From: a bacterium
GTDB taxonomy: Bacteria; Patescibacteriota; Saccharimonadia; Saccharimonadales; Saccharimonadaceae
Direction: 5' to 3'
NCBI GenBank assembly: GCA_963637115.1
Contig: CAVHLO010000001.1
Coordinates: 244,333 to 308,332 of the forward strand
Length of the DNA: 64,000 nt
Part shown: piece after piece, positions 306-57,566 of the stretch
Layout of the letters: each line of letters begins with the position of its first letter
Position numbering within the stretch: position 1 is the stretch's first letter
Program-made: the position numbers and the translations under genes
The notes under the pieces: generated by a model
What the model saw: only the letters and a program-made list of their open reading frames with translations
Database searches by the model: none
Told to the model about the DNA's origin: nothing

Positions 306-1475
306 TCATGCTCCTCCTGAACTAATTGTCCCATTCATGAGCTTTGGTAGCAATGTGTCGCGAATATTATTTAAAATATTATTTTGCTCCATCAGTTTAT
401 TTATTTTTTCAAGCATTGGTTCGCATACATCATAAAATTTTTGTCTTGCATCCTTTGATGGAAAAATATGTTTGTCGGTAGCGAACGCACTATAAGAAAG
501 CATAGGTTGTGCCGAACCAGAACATCTATCTTTAAAATTATAATTTTGTAATGCAAATACTTCATATGGATAATCAATCTTATTTTTTGGGAGCACATAA
601 AAAGCATTACTTGTGACAGAATATTTTGTTTCATATGACCTGGAAATTGTTCCCGCACCAGCACCAATAGCAGCAATTAATACCGATGGTATATCTAGCG
701 TGTACTCTTTAGAATATCCAAAAATATCACGACCAGCGCCATACACAACGAACGGGTGGTCGTTATTCTGTATGATTGAAACATCATTTTTAGTTAATGC
801 AACGCCTCTTCTAAACTCAAAGAGTTCTCCGAGTGGTTCTACTGTCCAGTCATTGGGGATTACTCCTAATTCTGTCGTTTTGAAATTAACAGTTTTAAAT
901 GGCTCGAGGTCAATAAACCATTTTTTAAAAATTACAGATGCTTGGTTTTCTAAATTTATGCGAATTTTATTGTTGAGCTCGATTTTATTGTCGAAGGCAG
1001 AGAGGATGCGGACAACTTTTTTCTGAGTTTCTAAATCTGGAAGATCTATTTCAAAGTCTAAAATAATATTCTTATTAAGGTTTTGCTGAGCAGCCCCGTT
1101 AGCTAAAATATCCAATTCAACGTATTTATTCTTTAAGGCGTAATAAACATATTCATAAAGAGCCTTCGTTGGATTAATTTCTAAACTACAGCAAGCCTGA
1201 TTAGTGCATAGAGGTACTTTATTAATAGCTACTCTGCCAGCTGTTCCACGGCAATACATTGCGATTATAACAGAATTAGTTTCAATCATCTTAGCTGCAG
1301 AATTTTCTAAACCTAATTGAGTGATATTTTTTTCTGTAGAATAAATTCTGTTGTAATCTACTTCTTTTGTATTAACCCAAGGTATAGTTCCTTCATTATA
1401 ATATTTTGGACATGAACTCTTTGGTGTCCCACCCACCACTGCCTTTAAAGTAATATCTCTTAGCTTATATCTCAT
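306..1475 (-). CDS. hsdS: type I restriction-modification system specificity subunit HsdS
   Basis: Two variable target-recognition halves are separated by conserved helical spacers typical of HsdS (LETQKKVVRILSAFDNKIELNNKI; C-terminal LMEQNNILNNIRDTLLPKLMNG). It lies directly downstream of hsdM. The ATG at 1475 overlaps the hsdM stop by 11 nt; the track start at 1481 is a TTG. Confidence 0.85.
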   Translation of the reverse strand: MRYKLRDITLKAVVGGTPKSSCPKYYNEGTIPWVNTKEVDYNRIYSTEKNITQLGLENSAAKMIETNSVIIAMYCRGTAGRVAINKVPLCTNQACCSLEINPTKALYEYVYYALKNKYVELDILANGAAQQNLNKNIILDFEIDLPDLETQKKVVRILSAFDNKIELNNKIRINLENQASVIFKKWFIDLEPFKTVNFKTTELGVIPNDWTVEPLGELFEFRRGVALTKNDVSIIQNNDHPFVVYGAGRDIFGYSKEYTLDIPSVLIAAIGAGAGTISRSYETKYSVTSNAFYVLPKNKIDYPYEVFALQNYNFKDRCSGSAQPMLSYSAFATDKHIFPSKDARQKFYDVCEPMLEKINKLMEQNNILNNIRDTLLPKLMNGTISSGGA

Positions 1476-2964
1476 ACCCAATCTCGCTTAAAACTGTTTT
1501 AATCTCCTTGTCTAGCTCGGCGGATTTTTGCATTTGCGTGGAGAGCTCAGTGGTGAGGGTTTTCATTTTTTCTTCGAAGGGGATTCCGTCTCCTTCTTCC
1601 TCTTTGATACCTACATAGCGACCTGGGGTTAAAACGTAATCATTGGCTTTAATTTCCTCTAGCGTGGCAGATTTGCAAAAGCCTGCTATATCTTCGTAAT
1701 TTTCGTCATTTTCGAAGGCGTGGTATGTGTTGGCGATTTTCATGATGTCGTCTTCGGAGAGCTCGCGGAGCTTGCGGGTGACCATGGTGCCAAGTTCGTT
1801 GGCGTTAATAAAGAGCGTTTTGCCGCAAGTTTTTCTATTAGTATTACGGTTTAGAATCCAAATTGAGCATGGCACTGTGACGGTGTAGAATAAATTCGTT
1901 GGCATCGACAAAATACAATCGACAAGGTTAGCTTCGAGAAGTTTCTTTCTAATTTCGGCTTCTTGACCGCCAGCAGAAAGTGAGCCGTTGGCGAGAATGA
2001 TTGCGGCTTTGCCGGTGACGGATAATTTTGAAACCATGTGCTCGATCCAAGCATAGTTCGCATTGCCCTTTGGCGGAATACCGAATTTCCAGCGATAATC
2101 ATTGGAGAGTTTTTCTTGGCCCCAATCGCTGAGGTTGAACGGCGGATTTGCCATCACAAAATCGGCTTTTAGATTTTTATGTAAATCTTCAGTAAAAGTG
2201 TCCGCCGCAAATTTGCCAAGATCGCCGTCGATCGAGCGGATGGCGAGATTCATCTTTGCTAATTTCCAAGTGGTTGGGTTTTTCTCTTGACCATAGATTG
2301 AAATATCGCGAGCGTTGCCTTGATGGCGTTGAATAAACTTCAGAGATTGCACAAACATTCCACCAGAGCCGCAGGCGGGATCATAGACACGGCCTTTGTA
2401 TGGCTCGAGGATTTCGACCATTGTACGGACGAGACATGCTGGAGTATAAAATTCGCCGCCTTTTTGGAGCTCATTTGACGCAAATTCACCGAGAAAATAT
2501 TCATAAATTCGTCCGAGTAAATCTTTCTCGGTCGCCTCTTTCGTTCCGATTTTGATATTCGTGAATAAATCAATGATTTCACCAAGGTTTACATTACGAT
2601 TGTCCGGGTCATTATAGACTTTAAACAAAACGCCCTTTAAGGTTGGGTTTTCTTTTTCAATCGAGTCGAGGGCTTTGTCGAGAATTTCGCCAATATTATA
2701 ATCTTTAGCGTGTTTAACGAGGTAGCTCCAGCGAGCATTTTCTGGGACAAAGAAAATATTGTCTTGGATATATGCGTCACGGTCTTCCTCAAACCCCAAT
2801 CCTTCGGCTTTTAATTTCTCGTATTGTTCTTCGAAAGAGTCGGAAATATATTTAAGGAATATTAATCCGAGAATTAAAAATTTATAATTTGTTACCGAAA
2901 TGCCACCACGCATTTTGTCGGCGGCCGCCCAAAGGGTCTTTTCAAGGTCTTTAATATTGCTCAT
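1465..2964 (-). CDS. hsdM: type I restriction-modification system DNA methyltransferase subunit HsdM (N6-adenine)
   Basis: SAM motif DPACGSGGMF, catalytic NPPF (VMANPPFNLSDW), and an HsdM N-terminal domain (LWAAADKMRGG). The first ATG at 2964 gives MSNIKDLEKTLW; the track start at 2979 is a TTG. Confidence 0.9.
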   Translation of the reverse strand: MSNIKDLEKTLWAAADKMRGGISVTNYKFLILGLIFLKYISDSFEEQYEKLKAEGLGFEEDRDAYIQDNIFFVPENARWSYLVKHAKDYNIGEILDKALDSIEKENPTLKGVLFKVYNDPDNRNVNLGEIIDLFTNIKIGTKEATEKDLLGRIYEYFLGEFASNELQKGGEFYTPACLVRTMVEILEPYKGRVYDPACGSGGMFVQSLKFIQRHQGNARDISIYGQEKNPTTWKLAKMNLAIRSIDGDLGKFAADTFTEDLHKNLKADFVMANPPFNLSDWGQEKLSNDYRWKFGIPPKGNANYAWIEHMVSKLSVTGKAAIILANGSLSAGGQEAEIRKKLLEANLVDCILSMPTNLFYTVTVPCSIWILNRNTNRKTCGKTLFINANELGTMVTRKLRELSEDDIMKIANTYHAFENDENYEDIAGFCKSATLEEIKANDYVLTPGRYVGIKEEEGDGIPFEEKMKTLTTELSTQMQKSAELDKEIKTVLSEIGYEI

Positions 2965-3379
2965 AGTTGTAGGTTCCAATTACTCTTATGATTGTTTTTA
3001 AATAAAACCAGTTTTTACAAAAAGAATGCAGCCTTCTGGTGTGTCGGCTGGAACCTACAATTTTTCGCTTTACATCGCAAAGAAATCATAAGACCGACGC
3101 CTTTAAGGCTGCAGTCAAACTTCTTTGAGATGTAAAATAAAAATCTCAAATCAGCGATTTTAAAATTGTAAGTTCCAATTTGATTATACCATATTTGATA
3201 AATTTTTACCCGTCTTTGTCTCTATATTCTTTGAATTTAGATTAAAGAATATCACCGGTTTAATTGATGATAATACTTTTAAAATCTTGTATTTTTCAGT
3301 TGTCTGTGTTATAATGAAGATATATTCCGATGCGGGCGAATCAAACGGAGAGATACCAAAGATGGACCCGCTTTTTTGA

Positions 3380-3886
3380 TTACTTTTGGCGCTTCTTGTA
3401 TGCGATTTTATTCTTTATGCCGACATTATCTAAGAAATCAACATATTTTGGGGTGAAAATTCTGTATAGTGAAGATGTTGAGTGGCGGTTTGGCGATAGC
3501 AACTTGCAAAACCGATTTTTATTCACGAGATATTTAACCATTTTAAAATAATCGCCATCCCCAGACACCAGAATTACATTATCGAATTTTTCCCTATCCG
3601 CGATTTTGGACATAACCGAAAACACGATATCCGTATCTACGTTGCCTTTTTTCTTACCAATCATCGACTGGCTATGCTCTCGAAATACAAGTATAAAACC
3701 AGCTTCCTGAATTAATTCGTAAACGCTTTGATTGTCTTCATTTACTGCGCCAAGAAAATAGTACGCTTTTTCGACATCGTATTGCTCTTTGAGATAAACT
3801 CGAAATCTCTTTAAATCAACTTTCCAACCATGCGCATTGGTATTCATATAAAGATTTTGACCGTCAATGAAGGCTTGGTTATTCAT
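3380..3886 (-). CDS. NYN-domain (LabA/DUF88-like, PIN-related) predicted ribonuclease
   Basis: MNNQAFIDGQNLY..., GNVDTDIVF and VILVSGDGDY are the acidic motifs of NYN/LabA-like domains. ATG start. Confidence 0.7.
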   Translation of the reverse strand: MNNQAFIDGQNLYMNTNAHGWKVDLKRFRVYLKEQYDVEKAYYFLGAVNEDNQSVYELIQEAGFILVFREHSQSMIGKKKGNVDTDIVFSVMSKIADREKFDNVILVSGDGDYFKMVKYLVNKNRFCKLLSPNRHSTSSLYRIFTPKYVDFLDNVGIKNKIAYKKRQK

Positions 3887-7664: not shown

Positions 7665-8858
7665 ATGAAAGTATTGTGTGTCAATGCGGGGTCGTCGTCG
7701 TTAAAGTTTCAACTTTATGATATGCCGGCGGAGATTTCGATTATCAGTGGTTATGTGGAGAAAATTGGGGCGAAGGACAGTTTTTATACCATCAAGCACG
7801 AGGGCAAGAAAAACGAAGTGAAGCGAGAAATCAAGGATCACGCCGAGGCGGTAAAAGCGATGCTTGAGGAGCTTTTGAATTATGGCGTGGTGAAAGAGCT
7901 GGAGGAAATTCGCGGGGTAGGACACCGAGTGGTGCATGGGGGCGAAAAATATGCAAAATCGGTAGTGATTACTGACGAGGTAATTAAAGATATTGAGGAA
8001 TTTACGAAGTTTGCGCCGCTACATCACCCTGGGAACTTGGCGGGCATTCGGGCGATGCAAAAGGCTTTGCCAGACGCGACGCAAGTGGCGGTGTTTGACA
8101 CGGCATTTCACCAAACAATTCCGAAAGTGCAATATATGTATCCGGTGCCGATGGAGTGGTACGAAAAATACGGGGTGCGAAAATATGGTTTTCATGGAAC
8201 AAGCCATAAATATATCACCGAGGTGATGCAGAAAAAACTCGGCAAAGAAGATGTGAATTTGATTGTGTGCCATGTCGGGTCGGGGGCGTCGATCACGGCA
8301 GTAAAAGACGGTAAAAGTTATGACACTACCATGGGGCTGACGCCACTAGATGGGCTGATGATGGGTACGCGGTCTGGTTCGATCGATCCATCGATTATCA
8401 AGTACATGATTGACGAGGCGGGCATGACTTATCACAAGGTCGATGAGGCGCTAAATAAAAAGTCGGGGCTGCTCGGGGTGTGCGGATTTAACGACAACCG
8501 CGACGTAGAAAATGCGATCGCGGAAGGCGACGAGAATGCGCGACTGGCACTAGATATGTATGTGGACCGGATTGTGCGCTACATTGCAGAGTACTACTTG
8601 GAGCTAAGCGGCAAAGTGGATGCAATTGTGTTTACGGCCGGTGTGCTAGAAAACGGGGCGGAGACGAGAGAGTCAATTATCGAGGGGTTGGCGCCGCTAG
8701 GAGTGAAAGTCAACACCGAGGTGAATAACGCAATTGCGAGCTTCAAGGAAATTACGAGCGGGATTATCACAACTGAGGATTCGACCATTCCGGTTTATGT
8801 CGAGCCGACCAACGAAGAAGTGATGATTATTCGCGACGCATATAAGCTTTGCCGATAA
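7665..8858 (+). CDS. ackA: acetate kinase
   Basis: MKVLCVNAGSSSLKFQLYDM, HRVVHGGE and YGFHGTSHKY match the acetate/propionate kinase family along the full length. AAGGAG Shine-Dalgarno. Confidence 0.92.
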   Translation: MKVLCVNAGSSSLKFQLYDMPAEISIISGYVEKIGAKDSFYTIKHEGKKNEVKREIKDHAEAVKAMLEELLNYGVVKELEEIRGVGHRVVHGGEKYAKSVVITDEVIKDIEEFTKFAPLHHPGNLAGIRAMQKALPDATQVAVFDTAFHQTIPKVQYMYPVPMEWYEKYGVRKYGFHGTSHKYITEVMQKKLGKEDVNLIVCHVGSGASITAVKDGKSYDTTMGLTPLDGLMMGTRSGSIDPSIIKYMIDEAGMTYHKVDEALNKKSGLLGVCGFNDNRDVENAIAEGDENARLALDMYVDRIVRYIAEYYLELSGKVDAIVFTAGVLENGAETRESIIEGLAPLGVKVNTEVNNAIASFKEITSGIITTEDSTIPVYVEPTNEEVMIIRDAYKLCR

Positions 8859-8887
8859 CTGCTTTCGCCTCGTGCTATAATATAATT

Positions 8888-9832
8888 ATGGACGTCAATG
8901 AACTGATTGGAGATTTTTTGGAGCATCTCGAAGTCGAGAGCGGGAGAAGCAAAAAGACGATTGCAAACTATGAATTGTATTTAGTGCGGTTTTATGAACT
9001 GGCGGAGGAGATTTTGGGCAAAAGTGGGGTGAAGCCTGCTGAAATTACGCAAGAATTATTACGAAAATATCGGTTAAAACTCAATCGGTATGGGTCGGAA
9101 AACGGGAATGACGATTTAAAGACAATTACGCAAGCGTATCATTTGATTGCCCTTAGGGGATTTTTGAAATATTTGGCGCGGCGCGGAATTAAGTCGCTAG
9201 ACCCGTCGCTGGTGGATTTGCCACATGTGATTCGGAAGCAAGTGACGTTTTTGCATTATGACGAAGTGGAAGATATGTTGAACGAAATTGACACTTCGAC
9301 GGAGTCGGGGTTGCGCGATCGGGCGATTATTGAGCTGTTATATTCGGGCGGATTGCGAGTGTCGGAACTGGTGGGACTAAATCGGGATTCGATTAATTTG
9401 GAACGGCGCGAGTTTGTGGTGCGCGGGAAAGGCTCAAAAGACCGGCCGATTTTTATTTCGGAAACTTGCGCGGACCGAGTGCGAGATTATCTTGATGCGC
9501 GAACTGATTCCCTGCCGGCGCTGTTTTTGAACAACTCGCGGAATTTACAAGCGGTAGATACTTCGGGCAATTATCGACGAATGACAGCGCGATCAGTGGA
9601 GCGAATTGTAGAAAAATATGCGCGACTGGCGGGGATTACGAAACATGTTTCGCCCCATACTTTGCGCCATTCGTTTGCGACAGATCTTTTGATGAACGGG
9701 GCGGACCTCAGGTCGGTACAGTCAATGCTCGGGCATGCGGACATCTCGACCACGCAGATTTATACGCACGTAACCGATGCCCATCTCAAAGAAATTCATG
9801 ACAAGTTCCATACAGAAACAAAAGAAGATTAG
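8888..9832 (+). CDS. xerC: tyrosine site-specific recombinase XerC/XerD family
   Basis: SAM-like N-terminal domain plus catalytic R..HxxR..Y (ELLYSGGLRVSEL, HTLRHSFATDLL, LGHADISTTQIYTHV). The ATG at 8888 lies 6 nt after TATAAT (8876-8881). The track start at 8849 is a TTG inside the ackA 3' end. Confidence 0.85.
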   Translation: MDVNELIGDFLEHLEVESGRSKKTIANYELYLVRFYELAEEILGKSGVKPAEITQELLRKYRLKLNRYGSENGNDDLKTITQAYHLIALRGFLKYLARRGIKSLDPSLVDLPHVIRKQVTFLHYDEVEDMLNEIDTSTESGLRDRAIIELLYSGGLRVSELVGLNRDSINLERREFVVRGKGSKDRPIFISETCADRVRDYLDARTDSLPALFLNNSRNLQAVDTSGNYRRMTARSVERIVEKYARLAGITKHVSPHTLRHSFATDLLMNGADLRSVQSMLGHADISTTQIYTHVTDAHLKEIHDKFHTETKED

Positions 9833-30931: not shown

Positions 30932-31006
30932 TAGGCCGTCGCCAAGTGGTAAGGCAACGGGTTTTGGTCCCGTCATTCGCAGGTTCGAATCCTGCCGGCC
31001 TAGCCA
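30932..31006 (+). tRNA. tRNA-Gln (anticodon UUG)
   Basis: Cloverleaf: acceptor TAGGCCG/CGGCCTA (U1:A72), anticodon stem ACGGG/CCCGT with loop TTTTGGT, T arm GCAGG-TTCGAAT-CCTGC, encoded CCA. Confidence 0.9.
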
Positions 31007-31117
31007 TATGAGTCTTTCGCCTCCAGTGGGCGTTTTTTGTTGGGGATTCGGACCTACGGTGCGAATCCTGCCGGCCTAGCCATATGAGTCTTTCGCCTCC
31101 AGTGGGCGTTTTTTGTT
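30986..31117 (+). repeat. 56-nt perfect direct repeat of the tRNA-Gln 3' end plus its downstream hairpin/T-run (copies 30986-31041 and 31062-31117; 20-nt spacer)
   Basis: Both copies read CGAATCCTGCCGGCCTAGCCATATGAGTCTTTCGCCTCCAGTGGGCGTTTTTTGTT. The spacer GGGGATTCGGACCTACGGTG contains GGATTCG, complementary to the CGAATCC that starts copy 2. Confidence 0.9.
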
Positions 31118-34955: not shown

Positions 34956-36065
34956 TTATAGCATATTCAGGTGTTTTAGGTGGTGGAGCAGGGCGTGGAG
35001 ATGGTAAAATGGCAGATTGACGGGGAGTTCATAAGCGCCGAGTAATTCAGTGACGCGACCGGTAGTTTCGGAAGTGAAGCCTTTTTTGAAGTCGTAGATA
35101 CCGTTGTCTTGCGAGTTCGGATCGGGGAGGCCGTTGATACCGTAGAAATTATAGCGTTTGAATTTGTGTTCGGCGGCGTATTTGATCATGTGCCATTGAA
35201 TTAAATATTGAGCGTTGTATTCTTTCATGTAGGTTTCGTCGCTACCAGAGAAGAGATAAATAACTTCGTCGCCATAAAGCATAAACATAGCGGCGGAGAG
35301 TGGGGTGTTTTTCAGGGGAGTGGCGGTCGACGCTGCTGTGGCGCCTGATACCTCCGCGACGAGAAATTTTACTTCCCCTCTGTCGGCAAAAAGGTCATAC
35401 ATCTGTTCGTAATATTTCAGAGGTTTGTCGGTAAAGTGGCGGCGGGCGGAAGTCGAGGCGGTGATTTGCTTGAAAATTGAGAGTTCGTCGCGGGAGAGTT
35501 CACGGATCTCGACGCCTTTTTTCTCGGCTTTGCGGATATGATTTCTAGTGTTGCGCTTAAAATCGGCGAAAATTTCGTCAGGGGTGCGATTATTGAGCTC
35601 TAAAACGAAGGCATATTTTGGCTCGTCGGAGGTTTTTAGGGGTTTAAAACCGAGAGTTTGGAGATTTTTTACGGCTTTTTGGTGATTAAAACCGTTTTTG
35701 ACTGGTTCGCCGGCGCGATCGCGTTCGATAAGTTCGTAATAAGGTTCGATGTGGAGAACATAGCCGTTGTGAGTTTTGGCGAAGTGGCGGAGGTGGCGGA
35801 TAAAAAAGTTGAGAATTTTAGTGTCTTCGTAATCGACCAACGGACCACCTGGGGCGTAGAAAATCGACTTACCGAGAAAGGCTGGTTTGGCGACGACAAG
35901 AGAAGCGGCGACGAGTTTTTCGGCGTTCTTGACGCCAAAATAATAAGCCGTCCAACCGTTTTGTTCGCGCAAGTTCGCGATTTCGGGAGTTTGGTAGAAA
36001 GATTTGTTCGGGTGATTCTTGGCGAAATTACGAAATTCCGTGGGGGTGAGTTCGATAAATTGCAT
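34956..36065 (-). CDS. FemAB-family peptidoglycan interpeptide-bridge aminoacyltransferase
   Basis: Full-length FemAB/MurM-like (FYQTPEIANLREQNGW..., YNAQYLIQWHMIKYA, RYNFYGI). Confidence 0.8.
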   Translation of the reverse strand: MQFIELTPTEFRNFAKNHPNKSFYQTPEIANLREQNGWTAYYFGVKNAEKLVAASLVVAKPAFLGKSIFYAPGGPLVDYEDTKILNFFIRHLRHFAKTHNGYVLHIEPYYELIERDRAGEPVKNGFNHQKAVKNLQTLGFKPLKTSDEPKYAFVLELNNRTPDEIFADFKRNTRNHIRKAEKKGVEIRELSRDELSIFKQITASTSARRHFTDKPLKYYEQMYDLFADRGEVKFLVAEVSGATAASTATPLKNTPLSAAMFMLYGDEVIYLFSGSDETYMKEYNAQYLIQWHMIKYAAEHKFKRYNFYGINGLPDPNSQDNGIYDFKKGFTSETTGRVTELLGAYELPVNLPFYHLHALLHHLKHLNML

Positions 36066-36066
36066 G

Positions 36067-37164
36067 TTATTTCCTTATTAAACGGTTAAATTTACGGAGA
36101 AGTGAGTAAAGGCGGTATTTGGTGGGGTCGAGGACGAGGTCGTAGGTGCCGGCGTAGTCGACTTCGGTGCCAGCGAAGGTCTTTTTGAAGTTGGTGAAGC
36201 CCTGCCAAGGGTGGTCTTTGGGGGCGTTTTCGGGGGCGATACCCCAGAAATCGAAGGTTTTTTGACCTTTCTTGGCGGCGTCGAGGATTAGCTGAATAGT
36301 CAAAATTCCGGTGGCGTGGAGCTTTCTTCCCTGTTCGGATTGGGCGCCTTGGAGATTATAACGCGTGGTACAGTCGTCGAAAACGAGGCCGGCAGCGATG
36401 ACTTCGCCTATATTATTAAGAGCTGGAATGACTTCTCTCGGGTCGCGTCCGGTCAGCCCGTCGCCACGGGTGACCGGCGCTAATCCTCGCGCTGCCGCGC
36501 TCCGGAATCCCCTCGAGAAGTCATTCTCAGCTTCATAGTCAACCGTGCTCGAACACCCGTCGCCACATATATTCCTCGAACGAGGGTGTTCTGCGCACGC
36601 ACTAACAAGATAGAGGGTGGCGAAGGGTTGCTTTAGCTCCGTTTTTAGGTAATTTTCGGAGAAAGTGTTGATTTTTTTCTCCTTGGCGAGAGCTTTTTGG
36701 AGGTCTAGGAGATAGCGGATATCATCGGGGTTGTGGCTAGTGGTGATTTTGATGCCGTTTTTTTCGGCGTTTTTATAATAGCGCAAAAGTCGCGAGGGGA
36801 GGCGGGATTTTAGGTCGTCTTCCTTCCCTGTTAGATCGAGCTTCCAAGTCTCTTTGGGGTTTAAATCAGTTGATTTTTTAGCAATTCGGGGGAGATGATC
36901 AGTAAAAATTTTAGATTGAGGCTCGACGCGAATAAAAAAGGCGTTTTGGCGACTGGCGAGGTTTTTAAGACTTTTAAGCGAATTTTCAAAACCAGATTTT
37001 TGCTCAAAAACTGGTCCATAGGGGAGATAAAGGTAGTTCCCCACTGGAGTTTTTTTCAAAATCGCCAGATATTGGTAGCCACTTCCCTGCTCAAAAAAAC
37101 TTACTTCGTGCAAATCATCCTGAAGTTGTTTCCATTCTGAAGTCTGCGTAATCGGTGCATTCAT
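36067..37164 (-). CDS. FemAB-family aminoacyltransferase paralog carrying in-frame palindromic insertions
   Basis: FemAB-like N-terminal and C-terminal halves (LYLPYGPV..., YNLQGAQSE, FDFWGIAP), interrupted by a GC-rich segment of about 57 codons (CAEHPRSRNICGDG...RDPREVIPA). Confidence 0.75.
   Translation of the reverse strand: MNAPITQTSEWKQLQDDLHEVSFFEQGSGYQYLAILKKTPVGNYLYLPYGPVFEQKSGFENSLKSLKNLASRQNAFFIRVEPQSKIFTDHLPRIAKKSTDLNPKETWKLDLTGKEDDLKSRLPSRLLRYYKNAEKNGIKITTSHNPDDIRYLLDLQKALAKEKKINTFSENYLKTELKQPFATLYLVSACAEHPRSRNICGDGCSSTVDYEAENDFSRGFRSAAARGLAPVTRGDGLTGRDPREVIPALNNIGEVIAAGLVFDDCTTRYNLQGAQSEQGRKLHATGILTIQLILDAAKKGQKTFDFWGIAPENAPKDHPWQGFTNFKKTFAGTEVDYAGTYDLVLDPTKYRLYSLLRKFNRLIRK
36426..36591 (-). 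repeat. two adjacent GC-rich palindromic elements inside the FemAB paralog (full copy 36426-36526, short copy 36551-36591)
   Basis: Perfect 12-bp termini GAATGACTTCTC/GAGAAGTCATTC. Internal hairpins at 36445-36480 and 36489-36500. The core GCCCGTCGCCACGGGT is shared with the valS element. The short copy has GAACACCC/GGGTGTTC termini and the same CCCGTCGCCAC core. Confidence 0.8.
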
Positions 37165-46081: not shown

Positions 46082-46834
46082 ATGATGGCGAAACGGGAAA
46101 AATCTAATCCAGAGAAAAATAAAAACGGTGGATTTAAAGCCAAGTCGCAAAAGTTGAAGGCGAAGGTGTTGAAGTCGTATTACGGCAACCCGATGAAAGA
46201 TATGAAGCTGATTGCGATTACTGGGACGACAGGAAAGACGACCGTGGCGCATTATGTGCATGAGATTTTAAAAGCTTCTGGCGAACAAGTAGCAGTACTA
46301 GCGAGTGACCAACCGTTTAAGATAGGGATGCTTCATAAGTTTTTGTCGGATGCCTGGAAAGCGGGGGCGAATTATGTAGTGGTGACGGTGCCGGCGGAGG
46401 GGTTACGTGATAATGTGTTTTATGGACTGCCAGTGACGGTGGCGGCAATGACGAATTTTGTAACGGCCGGGCTGAACGATATATCACCAGACGAATATTT
46501 AGACAATGAGAAGACTTTGTTTGATATGAAACCGGAAATTGTGGTGCTAAATCATGATGATTTAAATTATGATACTTTTTCCGAATTTAAGGGAACAGAG
46601 GCGACAATTACATTTGGGCAGAGTTCGGCAGATGTGAAAATTTTGAATTCTAAACTATACAGCAGGGGAACAGAGGCGACGGTATCAATGCGGACAGAAA
46701 TTACGACATTGGCGACATTTGTGTCTGGCGAGACGGCGGTGTCGTATATGGCTTGCGCGGCGGCGATTGCGGAGGGGTTAAAAATTCCGAACGAAAAAAT
46801 CGTGGACGGAATTGCGGAATATAATCCAGCTTAG
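46082..46834 (+). CDS. Mur-ligase-family protein, central domain only (250 aa, probably non-canonical)
   Basis: P-loop ITGTTGKTT, but it lacks the C-terminal domain and the TNLxxDHLDYH-type motif. Lys-rich N-terminal tail. TATAAT 6 nt upstream of the ATG. Confidence 0.6.
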   Translation: MMAKREKSNPEKNKNGGFKAKSQKLKAKVLKSYYGNPMKDMKLIAITGTTGKTTVAHYVHEILKASGEQVAVLASDQPFKIGMLHKFLSDAWKAGANYVVVTVPAEGLRDNVFYGLPVTVAAMTNFVTAGLNDISPDEYLDNEKTLFDMKPEIVVLNHDDLNYDTFSEFKGTEATITFGQSSADVKILNSKLYSRGTEATVSMRTEITTLATFVSGETAVSYMACAAAIAEGLKIPNEKIVDGIAEYNPA

Positions 46835-46849: not shown

Positions 46850-48148
46850 CTAATTTTTGAATTTTGCTCTTAAGAGTTCGCGAGTAACTTTAATATCTTC
46901 AAAGGCGTGTGGGCCGTCGGCACGAAGAATGGTTTTTTCGTGGCCTTTGCCGAGAATGAGGACTAGGTCGCCTTTTTTCGCGGTGTCGAGGGCTAGTTTA
47001 ATAGCTGTTTTGCGATTTAATTCTTTGAATAAATCTTTGCCGAGGACTTTGCCCTCTTTCTTTGCGCCTTCGATAAACGCGGCAGCGATAGCCTCGGGGT
47101 CTTCGTCGCGAGAGTCGTCTTCGGTGATAATGACGATATCGGAATTTTTAGCGAGGATACGGCCACGAATTGGGCGGGTCGAGGGGTCGCGACGACCAGC
47201 ACCACCGTGGACGGAAATAATTCGACCTTGGTGATTTTTGACGCTATCAAAAACTTTTTCGAGAGCGTCGGGGGCATGGGCGTAATCGACAATTACCGTA
47301 AAGGGTTGACCTTCATCGATTAAATTCATGCGACCTTCGACGCTACCAAGTGATTTTAGACCATTTTCAATTTCTTTGGGCTCTAACCCGAGTTTTTCGC
47401 CAACTACTGCTGCGGCGAGGGAATTATAAACATTAAATTCACCTGGAATTTTGGTTTCAATATTCATGCCGTGATATAAATATTTAACGCCCGAGACCTG
47501 AAGTTCAATATTTTCTGGGCGATTTTGACCGTTTTTTATACCATAGGACGAATAATTTTTCGTAAGCGTCTTGTAGAATTTGGTGGCGGAATCATCGGCG
47601 TTTAGGATACTGAACTTGGCTTTTTTGAATAATTTGCCTTTGGCGGCGCGGTAGCGGGCAAAAGTTTTATGATAATCGAGATGCTCGTGGGTAAGGTTGG
47701 TGAATACGGCGATTTCGACCGGAATGCCGAGGGTGCGAAATTCGGCGAGAGCATGAGAGGTGACTTCTAAAACCAAAAATTCGGCGCCGCTGTTTTTGAT
47801 TTCGTCAATACGGTGATTTAAAGTAAAAACATCGGGAGTGGTCATATGAGCGGAGGTGTGATGGAGAATTTTGGGGTTCAGGCTAGTGTCGGAAGAGTCG
47901 GTTTTGGGATTTTCGCCGACACCGCCCCAAGCGACCGTGGTAATAAGTCCGGTTTTACGACCGGCGGAATTTAGCATTTTCCAGAGCATGAAACAAGTGG
48001 TGGTTTTGCCGTTGGTGCCAGTTACGGCGATGACGCGAATATTTCGGGCAGGGAAGTGGTATTTAATGCCGGCGATAACAGATTGAGCGAAATGATAGGG
48101 CAGAACTGCCTCGTTATAACAGGGAAGTTTTTCGAGTAAGTGTTTCAT
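46850..48148 (-). CDS. murE: UDP-N-acetylmuramoyl-L-alanyl-D-glutamate--(L-Lys/DAP) ligase MurE
   Basis: VTGTNGKTTT, TNLTHEHLDYH, EGRMN, VDYAHAPDALEKV, GGAGRRDPSTRP. The N-terminal domain is shorter than usual. Confidence 0.82.
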   Translation of the reverse strand: MKHLLEKLPCYNEAVLPYHFAQSVIAGIKYHFPARNIRVIAVTGTNGKTTTCFMLWKMLNSAGRKTGLITTVAWGGVGENPKTDSSDTSLNPKILHHTSAHMTTPDVFTLNHRIDEIKNSGAEFLVLEVTSHALAEFRTLGIPVEIAVFTNLTHEHLDYHKTFARYRAAKGKLFKKAKFSILNADDSATKFYKTLTKNYSSYGIKNGQNRPENIELQVSGVKYLYHGMNIETKIPGEFNVYNSLAAAVVGEKLGLEPKEIENGLKSLGSVEGRMNLIDEGQPFTVIVDYAHAPDALEKVFDSVKNHQGRIISVHGGAGRRDPSTRPIRGRILAKNSDIVIITEDDSRDEDPEAIAAAFIEGAKKEGKVLGKDLFKELNRKTAIKLALDTAKKGDLVLILGKGHEKTILRADGPHAFEDIKVTRELLRAKFKN

Positions 48149-50293: not shown

Positions 50294-50374
50294 TGGCGGA
50301 AAGGACAGGATTGGTTATCCTAGGCCTTTCCTTCAAATTCCCCTCAGAATAGCAAGCTATTCTGAATGGAAATT
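50294..50374 (-). repeat. 81-nt module downstream of tRNA-Ser(GGA), ending in a 19-nt copy of the tRNA 3' end that can fold as an acceptor/T-arm-like minihelix
   Basis: Minus strand: hairpin CAGAATAG-CTTG-CTATTCTG, then GGAAAGG-CCT-AGGAT-AACCA-ATCCT-GT-CCTTTCC-GCCA (50331-50294). Confidence 0.85.
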
Positions 50375-50464
50375 TGGCGGAAAGGACAGGATTCGAACCT
50401 GCGAATGGGTTGCCCCATTACACGCTTTCCAAGCGTGCGCCTTCAACCACTCGGCCACCTTTCC
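50375..50464 (-). tRNA. tRNA-Ser (anticodon GGA)
   Basis: Reverse complement gives acceptor GGAAAGG/CCTTTCC, anticodon stem CACGC/GCGTG with loop TTGGAAA, long variable arm, T loop TTCGAAT, encoded CCA. Confidence 0.9.
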
Positions 50465-56195: not shown

Positions 56196-57566
56196 TTAGA
56201 GGCCATAAATTTTTTCCTTGATTTCTTCGATTTGGTCGCGGAGGGTAAAATTGAGTTTTAGATCTTGTTCAATTTTTTTAATGCCATGCATAACGGTGGT
56301 ATGGTCTTTGACGCCGACCTCGAGGGCGATTTTATTGGTGGAGGAGCCGAGTTCTTTGTTGAGAATAAACATGGCTACTTGGCGGGCGTTTTTGATATTG
56401 GCGACACGAGATTTACTGCAGAGTTCTTTGGTGGAGAGGTTATAATATTTGGCGACTTTTTCGACAACTTGTTTAGGGGTGGCGGGGCGAAGTTTGGAAG
56501 ATTTATTGACGGAGACGGAGCCATTTTGAATAAGTTCTAGAGGAGTCATACCGCGAACTTCAGACATGAGGAGAATAGTGGAAAATTCGCCTTCGAGATC
56601 ACGGATGTTAGTGTTGACGTTTTCGGCGATATATTCGATGGCTTCGGGTTCGATTTCGGCGCCCATGAGGTCGGCTTTGGCGCGAAGAATTGCACATTTG
56701 TCTTCGAACTTGGGGAGTTGGAGGTCAAAGGCGCCGGCCTGAGCGAGACGAGAGGCTAAACGTTCATCGACGGACTTGATTTGAGAAGGGAGACGGTCGC
56801 TAGTGACGATAATTTGTTTGTTGAGCTGATAAAGGGCATTGAAAATGTTGAAAAATTCTTCTTGAGATTTTTCCTTGCCGACGATAAATTGAAAATCGTC
56901 AATAATTAGGCAGTCAAGAGTGCGAAATTTTTGGTTAAAATCTTTGCCTTTACCATTACGAACAGCGTCGATAAAGTCGGAATAAAAGTCGGAAATTGGA
57001 GTGTAGAGGATTTTGTAATTGGGGTTGCGGCGGAAAAGTTCGTTGCCGATGGCTTGGACGAGGTGAGTTTTACCAAGTCCTGGACCACCGTATAAGAAAA
57101 AGGGATTATAGCGGTCGCCTGGAGAGTCAATAATGCTACGGGCGGCAGAGGCGGCGAGGTCGTTGTTGGAGCCGACGATAAAGCTATCGAGTGTGTATTT
57201 TTGGTTGAGACCAGTGGAAAGGGTGGGGTTGGTGCGACTCATAGTGGTATGAGGGGTGCGAGGGGTGTGGTTAGAGAGCTTAGTGACATCGGTAGTGATT
57301 TCGCGCGGGCGGATTTTGGTTTTGGCGGGTGGTTTGACCTCGAAATCGACATCAATAATGTCTGGCTGACTGTCTTTTAGAGCGGATAAAATTAGATCAT
57401 AATAGCGGCTACGAAGTTGCTTGACATAGAAAGTGTTTTTAACGCTGATTTTAACATGTCCGTCTTTGATAGAGAGGAGAGAAGTATCCTGAAACCAGGT
57501 GGAAAAATTGGCAGGGGAAAGTTGTTGCTCGATTTTAGCAAGGGCATTTTTCCATGCGTCGTACAT
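56196..57566 (-). CDS. dnaA: chromosomal replication initiator DnaA
   Basis: AAA+ Walker A GGPGLGKTHL, Walker B LIIDDFQF, and a C-terminal DNA-binding domain (VAMFILNKELGSSTNKIALEVGVKDHTTVMHGIKKI). AGGAGG Shine-Dalgarno. Confidence 0.95.
   Translation of the reverse strand: MYDAWKNALAKIEQQLSPANFSTWFQDTSLLSIKDGHVKISVKNTFYVKQLRSRYYDLILSALKDSQPDIIDVDFEVKPPAKTKIRPREITTDVTKLSNHTPRTPHTTMSRTNPTLSTGLNQKYTLDSFIVGSNNDLAASAARSIIDSPGDRYNPFFLYGGPGLGKTHLVQAIGNELFRRNPNYKILYTPISDFYSDFIDAVRNGKGKDFNQKFRTLDCLIIDDFQFIVGKEKSQEEFFNIFNALYQLNKQIIVTSDRLPSQIKSVDERLASRLAQAGAFDLQLPKFEDKCAILRAKADLMGAEIEPEAIEYIAENVNTNIRDLEGEFSTILLMSEVRGMTPLELIQNGSVSVNKSSKLRPATPKQVVEKVAKYYNLSTKELCSKSRVANIKNARQVAMFILNKELGSSTNKIALEVGVKDHTTVMHGIKKIEQDLKLNFTLRDQIEEIKEKIYGL

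Follow-up and report, generated by a model that had tools for sequence, protein, structure and literature searches.

A module with the layout of Escherichia coli tRNA-linked repeats behind tRNA-Ser(GGA) and other tRNA genes of Candidatus Saccharibacteria

The window analysed here, a 64,000-nt stretch of DNA whose host belongs to Candidatus Saccharibacteria (TM7), of the Nanosyncoccus type known from ruminant guts, contains four true tRNA genes, for Gln, Arg, Ser(CGA) and Ser(GGA), and no further tRNA or pseudogene cloverleaf was found in it by ARAGORN or the Rfam tRNA model. One base past the CCA encoded by the tRNA-Ser(GGA) gene, and on the same strand, begins a module of 81 nt (Table 1), located between a gene for a TrmA-like RNA methyltransferase and an operon for a MacB-type ABC transporter. 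The surroundings correspond to core chromosome, close to recF-like, dnaN and dnaA genes. No integrase or mobile-element gene was found near the module, where the neighbours are housekeeping genes, and the only tyrosine recombinase of the window, an Xer-like one, is encoded 40 kb off.

In addition, a sub-threshold match to the Rfam family AsdA, an RNA antisense to the dnaA mRNA, was detected opposite dnaA (30.6 bits, E = 0.027), and weak AsdA-like matches were also found in three related loci; most likely, they appear because the coding sequence of dnaA is conserved. Type I restriction-modification genes hsdS and hsdM, together with a gene encoding a NYN domain, are present at the start of the window, where the GC content is low (36-38% vs 45% overall).

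Table 1. Coordinates of the module behind tRNA-Ser(GGA), of other window features and of sequences from related loci mentioned in the text
Feature	Position	Strand	Basis
Whole module	50294-50374	minus	
tRNA-Ser(GGA) gene, CCA encoded	50375..50464	minus	ARAGORN; Rfam tRNA match 60 bits
Source of the repeat, last 19 nt of tRNA-Ser(GGA)	50393-50375	minus	
Hairpin 1 (outer and inner stem, CUUG tetraloop), starting directly after the CCA	50335..50374	minus	fold
GAA linker	50332..50334	minus	alignments
38-nt segment	50331-50294	minus	
Inverted copy of the tail, GGAAAGG-CCT-AGGAT	50317..50331	minus	sequence, fold, covariation with the tail across species and tRNA types
AACCA loop of the short arm	50312..50316	minus	alignments
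Direct 19-nt copy of the tRNA 3' end (AATCCTGTCCTTTCCGCCA)	50294..50312	minus	exact-repeat search
hsdS, hsdM and NYN-domain gene	306-3886	minus	
Xer-like tyrosine recombinase gene	8849-9832		
tRNA-Gln(TTG)	30932-31006		
Terminators and tail-copy helix behind tRNA-Gln(TTG)	31007-31117	plus	
Two adjoining FemAB-family genes	34956-37164	minus	
Fic/DOC-family genes	42873-43946, 44920-46065	plus	
tRNA-Ser(CGA)	44641-44730		
Tandem modules behind tRNA-Ser(CGA)	44731-44808, 44809-44884 (within 44731-44911)	plus	
250-aa ORF with Mur ligase middle domain only	46082-46834	plus	
Full-length Mur ligase gene	46850-48148		
AsdA sub-threshold match	57011-57092	plus	
Long Arg-linked modules with small basic ORF	L015 13914-14050; L027 16969-17084		
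Second module behind an Arg-linked one	L030 18305-18385		
GAGCGAAGCGAG, dispersed copies	L058 5187; L062 2443, 2570; L069 5961		
GAGCGAAGCGAG, copies in modules, including	L015, L040, L045, L046		

Read along the tRNA strand, the module starts with a hairpin (hairpin 1) of sequence AATTTCC-ATT-CAGAATAG-CTTG-CTATTCTG-AGG-GGAATTT, in which the inner stem CAGAATAG/CTATTCTG is surrounded by an outer one, AATTTCC/GGAATTT. Beyond a short linker, it continues with the 38-nt segment GGAAAGG-CCT-AGGAT-AACCA-ATCCT-GT-CCTTTCC-GCCA. The last 19 nt of this segment repeat exactly (19/19) the 3' end of tRNA-Ser(GGA), spanning the end of the T-loop, the 3' strands of the T-stem and of the acceptor, the discriminator G and the CCA, and the match extends for 2 nt more (AA); base 50312 belongs both to the repeat and, as its last A, to the AACCA loop. 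The 5' part is an inverted copy, complementary to ATCCT-GT-CCTTTCC, whose first 7 nt (GGAAAGG) equal the 5' acceptor strand of the tRNA. A first-pass annotation of the window had already described the hairpin and the 38-nt segment, with their 3'-terminal identity and their re-created acceptor strand, and every detail that it listed was found in place. The hairpin that it had called strong is present too, although longer than noted, with the outer stem surrounding the part then described.

The 38-mer was predicted to fold into helices of 7 and 6 bp with the GCCA left free (-16.3 kcal/mol, z = -4.33, 0/200 shuffles as good), and the whole module into a structure of -33.4 kcal/mol (z = -4.93), which no shuffle equalled. 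The same annotation had envisaged a 7-bp acceptor stem stacked on a 5-bp arm. Helices of 7 bp and of 5-6 bp with a free GCCA are indeed predicted, but they are parted by an internal loop that is asymmetric (5' side CC, 3' side U in the predicted fold) and breaks the stack; in addition, the terminal 5-nt loop is unlike a T-loop.

A terminator scan did not call hairpin 1 of the window, whose tail (UUU-GAA) includes only three U's. Hairpins of the same family are the sole terminator after tRNA-Arg and tRNA-Ser(CGA) in loci lacking a module; thus, hairpin 1 is best read as a putative terminator, weak in the window. The orthologous hairpins located after tRNA-Arg carry long U runs.

Modules of this kind were found behind three of the four tRNA genes of the window, tRNA-Arg being the only one without. 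Downstream of the tRNA-Gln gene, its last 22 nt and its terminator are both found a second time, and the arrangement there is a terminator, then GGATTCG-GACCTACGGTG-CGAATCC including the 22-nt tail copy, and then a second, identical terminator; the hairpin GGATTCGGACCTWCGGTGCGAATCC of this locus was also found behind tRNA-Ser(CGA) in L031. In the window, tRNA-Ser(CGA) is followed by two modules (78 and 76 nt), and both end in the last 18-19 nt of the tRNA. They represent another class, composed of a short hairpin, AAAAAGC, a long arm and the tail, and their small hairpins show compensatory differences (CATTTTT/AAAAATG vs CATTCC/GGAATG). A terminator-like site is found behind this tRNA only past the second module, and the array appears to be one transcription unit. 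Two Fic/DOC-family genes, one of them also encoding a RhuM domain, flank the tRNA-Arg/tRNA-Ser(CGA) cluster, and an ORF corresponding only to the middle domain of a Mur ligase lies opposite a full-length Mur ligase gene; this region may be a small variable island.

The survey of related sequences included 80 loci around orthologues of the neighbouring methyltransferase, four contigs of close strains found through a look-up of the ABC ATPase protein (an exact-protein look-up of the methyltransferase gave no match) and the window itself, with 115 tRNAs altogether. A copy of the tRNA's own tail (last 15 nt) was detected within 600 nt downstream for 43 of these 115 tRNAs and upstream for a single one; the observation made on the window module is therefore correct and general beyond it. 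For tRNA-Ser(GGA), 18 of 39 genes had such a downstream copy. Presence is patchy, and about half of the related species have no module at this tRNA, so it is dispensable. The window-type layout was found behind four tRNA genes, those for Ser(GGA), Ser(CGA), Ser(GCT) and Arg(GCG), and a covariance model built from 23 modules gave strong matches directly after tRNAs only, within the window only at 50294-50373. In L030, a second module located behind an Arg-linked one has a tail (ATCCCTCCCGGGGTACCA) that corresponds to another tRNA, absent from the locus, and a 5' strand (ATTCCGG) that pairs with this tail, two G.U pairs included.

The layout common to these sequences runs from the CCA through an A/U-flanked long hairpin, with a tetraloop CUUG, UUUA or similar, a GAA or AAA linker (both are found in Ser-type modules), a complement of the acceptor 3' strand and a short arm, to the tail. 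In window-type modules, the short arm is (A)GGAT-N4-5-ATCCT, its loop of 4-5 nt being variable in sequence among relatives. Both helices were recovered by RNAalifold, with compensatory changes at 21 of 24 pairs. Among 28 aligned modules, 89.6% of the cells were paired, compared with 65.9% after shuffling and 48-55% with slid partners, and the covariation score was 0.62 vs 0.13-0.21, figures that are somewhat flattered by the fitting of the alignment to the model. Double changes were present at all seven acceptor-like pairs, across Ser and Arg tails, and compensatory changes at 13 of the 14 pairs of hairpin 1; likewise, the short arm covaries with the tail (AGGAT/ATCCT becoming AAGAT/ATCTT). 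The acceptor-like pairing, on whose preservation in homologues the first-pass annotation had staked its proposal in advance, is therefore kept.

The two helices differ in the kind of substitutions that they accumulate. In hairpin 1, whose tetraloop is usually CUUG, G.U cells outnumber A.C cells by 16 to 2, which identifies it as an RNA hairpin on the tRNA strand, whereas the acceptor-like helix shows no G.U excess (10 G.U vs 18 A.C, the latter mostly recurrent at pair 7, a pair mostly unpaired across modules). Most orthologues have one mismatch in the acceptor-like stem, such as GGAATGG vs CCTTTCC or GGAAGCA vs CGCTTCC, and the perfect stem of the window is an exception among them; a near-identical strain has GGGAAGG, the pair being retained as G.U. 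Junction and loop bases vary while the inverted copy remains complementary, and some Arg modules base-pair the ACCA end itself. A test of ungapped 7-mer complementarity to the acceptor was positive for the hairpin-plus-minihelix class only and gave no signal in the other classes of modules. Retention across species suggests selection on the conserved helix and not on the CCA tip. The modules are unlike random decay scars, because their pairing covaries and is kept in relatives.

We also considered that the module could be a degraded second tRNA. In the Arg modules, the 5' strand is unlike a tRNA 5' end and some of them pair through the ACCA, and Ser(GGA) modules with a CGCTTCC tail carry GGAAGCA instead of GGAAGTG, the tRNA's own sequence. 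Such an origin is possible for the Ser modules, yet it leaves the uniform layout unexplained.

The tails were then compared, as the last 19 nt of each of 27 modules against those of their own tRNA. Position 1 differs from the tRNA in 20 of the 27, positions 3-15, which form the paired part, present 1 change in 351 nt, and the NCCA presents 7 in 108 nt, being unchanged in 21 of 27 distinct modules. Close relatives have GCGG, GCAA, ACAA or GCCT replacing GCCA, with the helix kept. The copy follows the tail variant of its own tRNA, as seen for ATCTTGT, ATCCTCT, CGCTTCC, CACTTCC and others. Copy number varies even where the ABC protein is identical, with one module in the window, L001, L003 and L004 and two in L002. 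The sister species L086 has two modules with the order of types reversed, L005 has at this locus one module and a truncated remnant ('ctgtcctttccacaa'), and arrays of identical copies were detected in L005, L035 and L072. A perfect centre with eroding edges is the pattern to which recombination or slippage between short repeats gives rise, and the identity pattern, taken with the copy-number differences between strains, points to concerted evolution at the DNA level.

Repeats of this sort have been described from E. coli as tRNA-linked repeats (TLRs), from 1978 onwards (Egan & Landy 1978; Rudd 1999). All 22 TLRs of E. coli are characterised by a location just downstream of a tRNA or 5S gene and a sequence whose last 18-19 nt are those of the 3' end of that gene; they "have no known function", although RttR and the rrn-linked RrA/B/F do accumulate as discrete, processed RNAs (PMC8144298). 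A literature search on minihelices, tRNA-gene repeats and TLR/RttR/RtT returned E. coli TLR work only, and nothing comparable outside E. coli. The module of the window lies directly downstream of a tRNA in the same orientation, ends in a 19-nt exact repeat of it, and, as regards tandem units, there is one behind tRNA-Ser(GGA) in the window, two in L002, two behind tRNA-Ser(CGA) in the window and at least three in L072. Judged by position and by the 18-19-nt identity at the 3' end, the module is a TLR, the class that includes RttR (Rfam RtT).

The first-pass annotation had read the 38-nt segment as a minihelix mimic with a free GCCA end. It noted that the CCA-adding enzyme, RNase P, some aminoacyl-tRNA synthetases and acceptor-targeting toxins can have minihelices as substrates or decoys, and speculated from this that the modules might be functional. 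Minihelices are substrates of RNase P and of the CCA-adding enzyme, and RNA viruses carry 3'-terminal tRNA-like "genomic tags"; the module resembles them in that its helix measures about as much as an acceptor stem and a T-stem together and leads into a single-stranded RCCA. The perfect stem and free GCCA of the window module agree with such a mimicry, as does the NCCA retained by most of the modules compared. Moreover, the window encodes two adjoining proteins of the FemAB family, aminoacyl-tRNA-dependent transferases that build peptidoglycan bridges, which makes mimicry of a tRNA end conceivable. However, no part of the copy changes faster than the CCA, which some close relatives have lost while retaining the helix, a T-loop is absent, the internal loop breaks the stack, a stem mismatch is the rule in orthologues and the ACCA is itself base-paired in some Arg modules. 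Charging is unlikely in any case, as SerRS, ArgRS and GlnRS depend on contacts with the variable arm or with the anticodon. We therefore regard an acceptor-end mimic as improbable. The free-CCA decoy part of the suggestion that these modules are functional RNAs and not scars is thus not supported, whereas the part that rested on a conserved structure is.

A different origin, as the scar or the active site of a site-specific recombination event, was also weighed. Tyrosine integrases that target tRNA genes reportedly tend to share with them an identity block from the T-loop to the CCA, and in the module the identity extends from the final T-loop bases to the 3' end, so that tail and copy could be an attL/attR-type duplication with the crossover in the T-loop. 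As duplex DNA, the minihelix would then be a core binding site made of two inverted arms around a 4-5-bp spacer, the Xer-like recombinase of the window could be an enzyme to act on it, and the Fic and RhuM genes flanking the tRNA-Ser(CGA) array would fit an island. Unlike att repeats, however, the module is associated with no element or integrase, its repeats are 62 nt apart with an RNA-strand hairpin between them, and its structure is conserved across species. The 115 tRNAs were also searched for a distant att partner, in the form of a copy of the tail beyond 600 nt or on the opposite strand; only the other Ser tRNA and its modules were found, so that none (0/115) has a tail copy kilobases away beyond these, and no intact element was seen. 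As for a phage attP, the Ser(CGA) and Ser(GGA) tails appeared in the viral collection only in phage tRNA arrays and in two isolated matches, compatible with chance and without a tRNA. The spacer differs from the T-loop of the tRNA and, depending on the module type, has a length of anything between 4 and >100 nt, in conflict with an overlap region of constant length, and neither the uniform size of the modules nor a conserved RNA-strand hairpin is expected of a scar. Given the core-chromosome context, the lack of a nearby integrase and of distant tail copies, and the viral scan, the scar of an integrative element is unlikely, and we consider the recombination origin as a whole highly improbable.

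A by-product of DNA metabolism without any function at the RNA level deserves more weight. A template switch at the palindromic terminator and T-arm could have duplicated the tRNA tail in both inverted and direct orientation, after which slippage between the 18-nt repeats and templated correction of the imperfect palindrome would have maintained its uniformity, and the tRNA tail, hairpin 1 and the inverted copy do form one long imperfect palindrome, which in the Arg modules even includes TGGTA, the complement of TACCA. The erosion of the copy from its edges, with the CCA decaying, the variable copy number of near-identical strains, the existence of partly deleted remnants such as that of L005 and the patchy distribution among species would all be expected from it, and templated correction of imperfect palindromes could mimic covariation in the absence of selection on an RNA. 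On the other hand, direct repeats ~62-80 nt apart are readily deleted and these genomes are compact, yet orthologous modules, their hairpins still recognisably related, persist across species in which the flanking methyltransferase is only ~63-70% identical. In addition, the inverted copy stays complementary while junction and loop bases vary freely, the compact layout recurs behind four different tRNA genes, and TLR RNAs of E. coli accumulate as such. An origin as a mere by-product is thus possible, if somewhat doubtful; were it correct, the modules would still be a marker of how palindromic tRNA ends and terminators make repeats in very small genomes.

To our minds, there is about an even chance that the module is a minimal trailer element of the TLR type, which combines repeat dynamics in the DNA, co-transcription by read-through and a tRNA-like end helix. 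Such a minimal TLR would consist of a terminator-like hairpin after the CCA, an inverted copy of the tail and a direct copy of its 18-19 nt, the two copies folding into a helix of the size of the acceptor/T-arm. At the DNA level, the sequences show that the short direct repeats constituted by the tRNA tail and the module tail expand, contract and homogenise the array; dynamics of this sort keep the copy identical to its own tRNA and vary its number from strain to strain. At the RNA level, and by analogy with E. coli, the polymerase would read through the weak hairpin, the module would be transcribed with the tRNA and the helix would provide the trailer with a tRNA-like 3' end, from which trimming of the kind that matures tRNA 3' ends could yield a discrete stable RNA of ~80 nt, or the 38-nt helix if RNase P cuts at G1. 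An RNA with these ends would parallel RttR, which is annotated as ending precisely at the CCA of the first unit behind tyrV. Co-transcription with the tRNA is favoured because the Ser(CGA) array precedes the only terminator-like site after that tRNA, and because of the G.U excess in hairpin 1 on the tRNA strand. By this analogy, the module is most likely a co-transcribed trailer element that ends like a tRNA.

The relationship with the E. coli elements was also explored at the level of structure. TLRs of E. coli K-12 located after tyrV, lysT/W/Y/Z/Q, argV/Z/Q and rrfB were folded, and in all of them except the lysQ unit, for which an unpaired tail was predicted, the tail pairs with an inverted copy of itself around the core, as in GGGGAAGGAT/ATCCTTCCCC and CGTGTAGGAT/ATCCTGCACG. 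The 3' overhang was free after tyrV, lysW and lysY and partly paired in the other predicted folds. The same closing stem is contained in the consensus structure of Rfam RtT (RF00391). A search with RF00391 gave no match in the window even at E <= 10, nor in the long modules of L018, L022, L026 and L031, whereas the long Arg-linked module of L015, the best among those of Saccharibacteria, scored 29.2 bits, compared with 46.7-60 bits for the E. coli lys TLRs and a gathering score of 45. The L015 module shares AUGAGAAC, AGGUUCG and CGAGCGAAGCGAG with RtT. Homology to the core of the E. coli TLRs is therefore weakly suggested, and for this longer module only.

The long Arg-linked modules of L015 and L027 can be read by eye as a small basic ORF (MRTVGSHRAKR...) that starts with ATGAGAAC, as does E. 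coli tpr (MRSFDQGSTRAPARE...), and the two modules differ by an in-frame indel of 21 nt. A Tpr-like basic peptide initiated at ATGAGAAC was dropped as a candidate, as the frame meets a stop in L026 and coding is doubtful. A 12-mer, GAGCGAAGCGAG, corresponding to the CGAGCGAAGCGAG common to L015 and RtT, was present in 9 exact copies in 1.4 Mb of Saccharibacteria DNA, for ~0.2 expected, five of them in tRNA-linked modules and four as the loops of dispersed hairpins, and the E. coli lysW, lysY and lysQ TLRs (L098) also have it, directly ahead of their tails. The dispersed hairpins have covarying stems, followed by GGGGTATATCCAC and a T run.

A more speculative, and rather improbable, reading is that the three tail copies constitute a cis-acting RNA switch of stable-RNA operons, from E. 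coli to Saccharibacteria. Two partners would be available to the inverted copy, the downstream copy, with which it forms the harmless minihelix, and the upstream tRNA's tail, in which case hairpin 1 would grow to a duplex of ~30 bp. Precursors with a misfolded tRNA body might be marked in this way, as a quality check, or read-through precursors might be given a protective cap. If true, it would explain why inverted and direct copies stay matched to the tRNA while the CCA tip drifts, and why GAGCGAAGCGAG recurs in TLRs of two distant phyla.

Whatever its role, the module is a minimal variant of the TLR in a phylum new for these elements, with the same layout as the E. coli class. In E. coli, the TLRs of tRNA and rRNA operons have lacked an explanation since 1978, and in Saccharibacteria, episymbionts of reduced genomes, their layout is common, affecting about four in ten of the tRNAs sampled. 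This abundance and the reduction to a hairpin plus a tail-on-tail helix suggest that the helix formed with the tRNA 3' strand is the essential part of a TLR, and the Saccharibacteria modules provide a large set of natural variants on which the role of that helix could be tested.

Among other known systems, tRNA-like processing signals exist within longer transcripts, such as the plant mitochondrial t-elements and the mascRNA of MALAT1. As in these, the presence of an incomplete tRNA mimic behind another RNA could lead tRNA-processing enzymes to make transcript ends; however, t-elements and mascRNA are fuller cloverleaf mimics and eukaryotic, whereas the module is a bare helix copied from the adjacent tRNA. 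The closest parallel, which the first-pass annotation had overlooked, is with the E. coli TLRs, with which the modules share the downstream position on the same strand, the tail identity of 18-19 nt, the presence of one to several tandem units, a frequent location between two terminators, and an inverted tail copy that closes a helix leaving the NCCA free. They differ from them in the phylum of the host and in size, since the E. coli units, of 98-178 nt, have a conserved internal core (AACGTTGC..GCAACGGCCCGAAGGGCGAG..) where the window module has a 5-nt loop instead.
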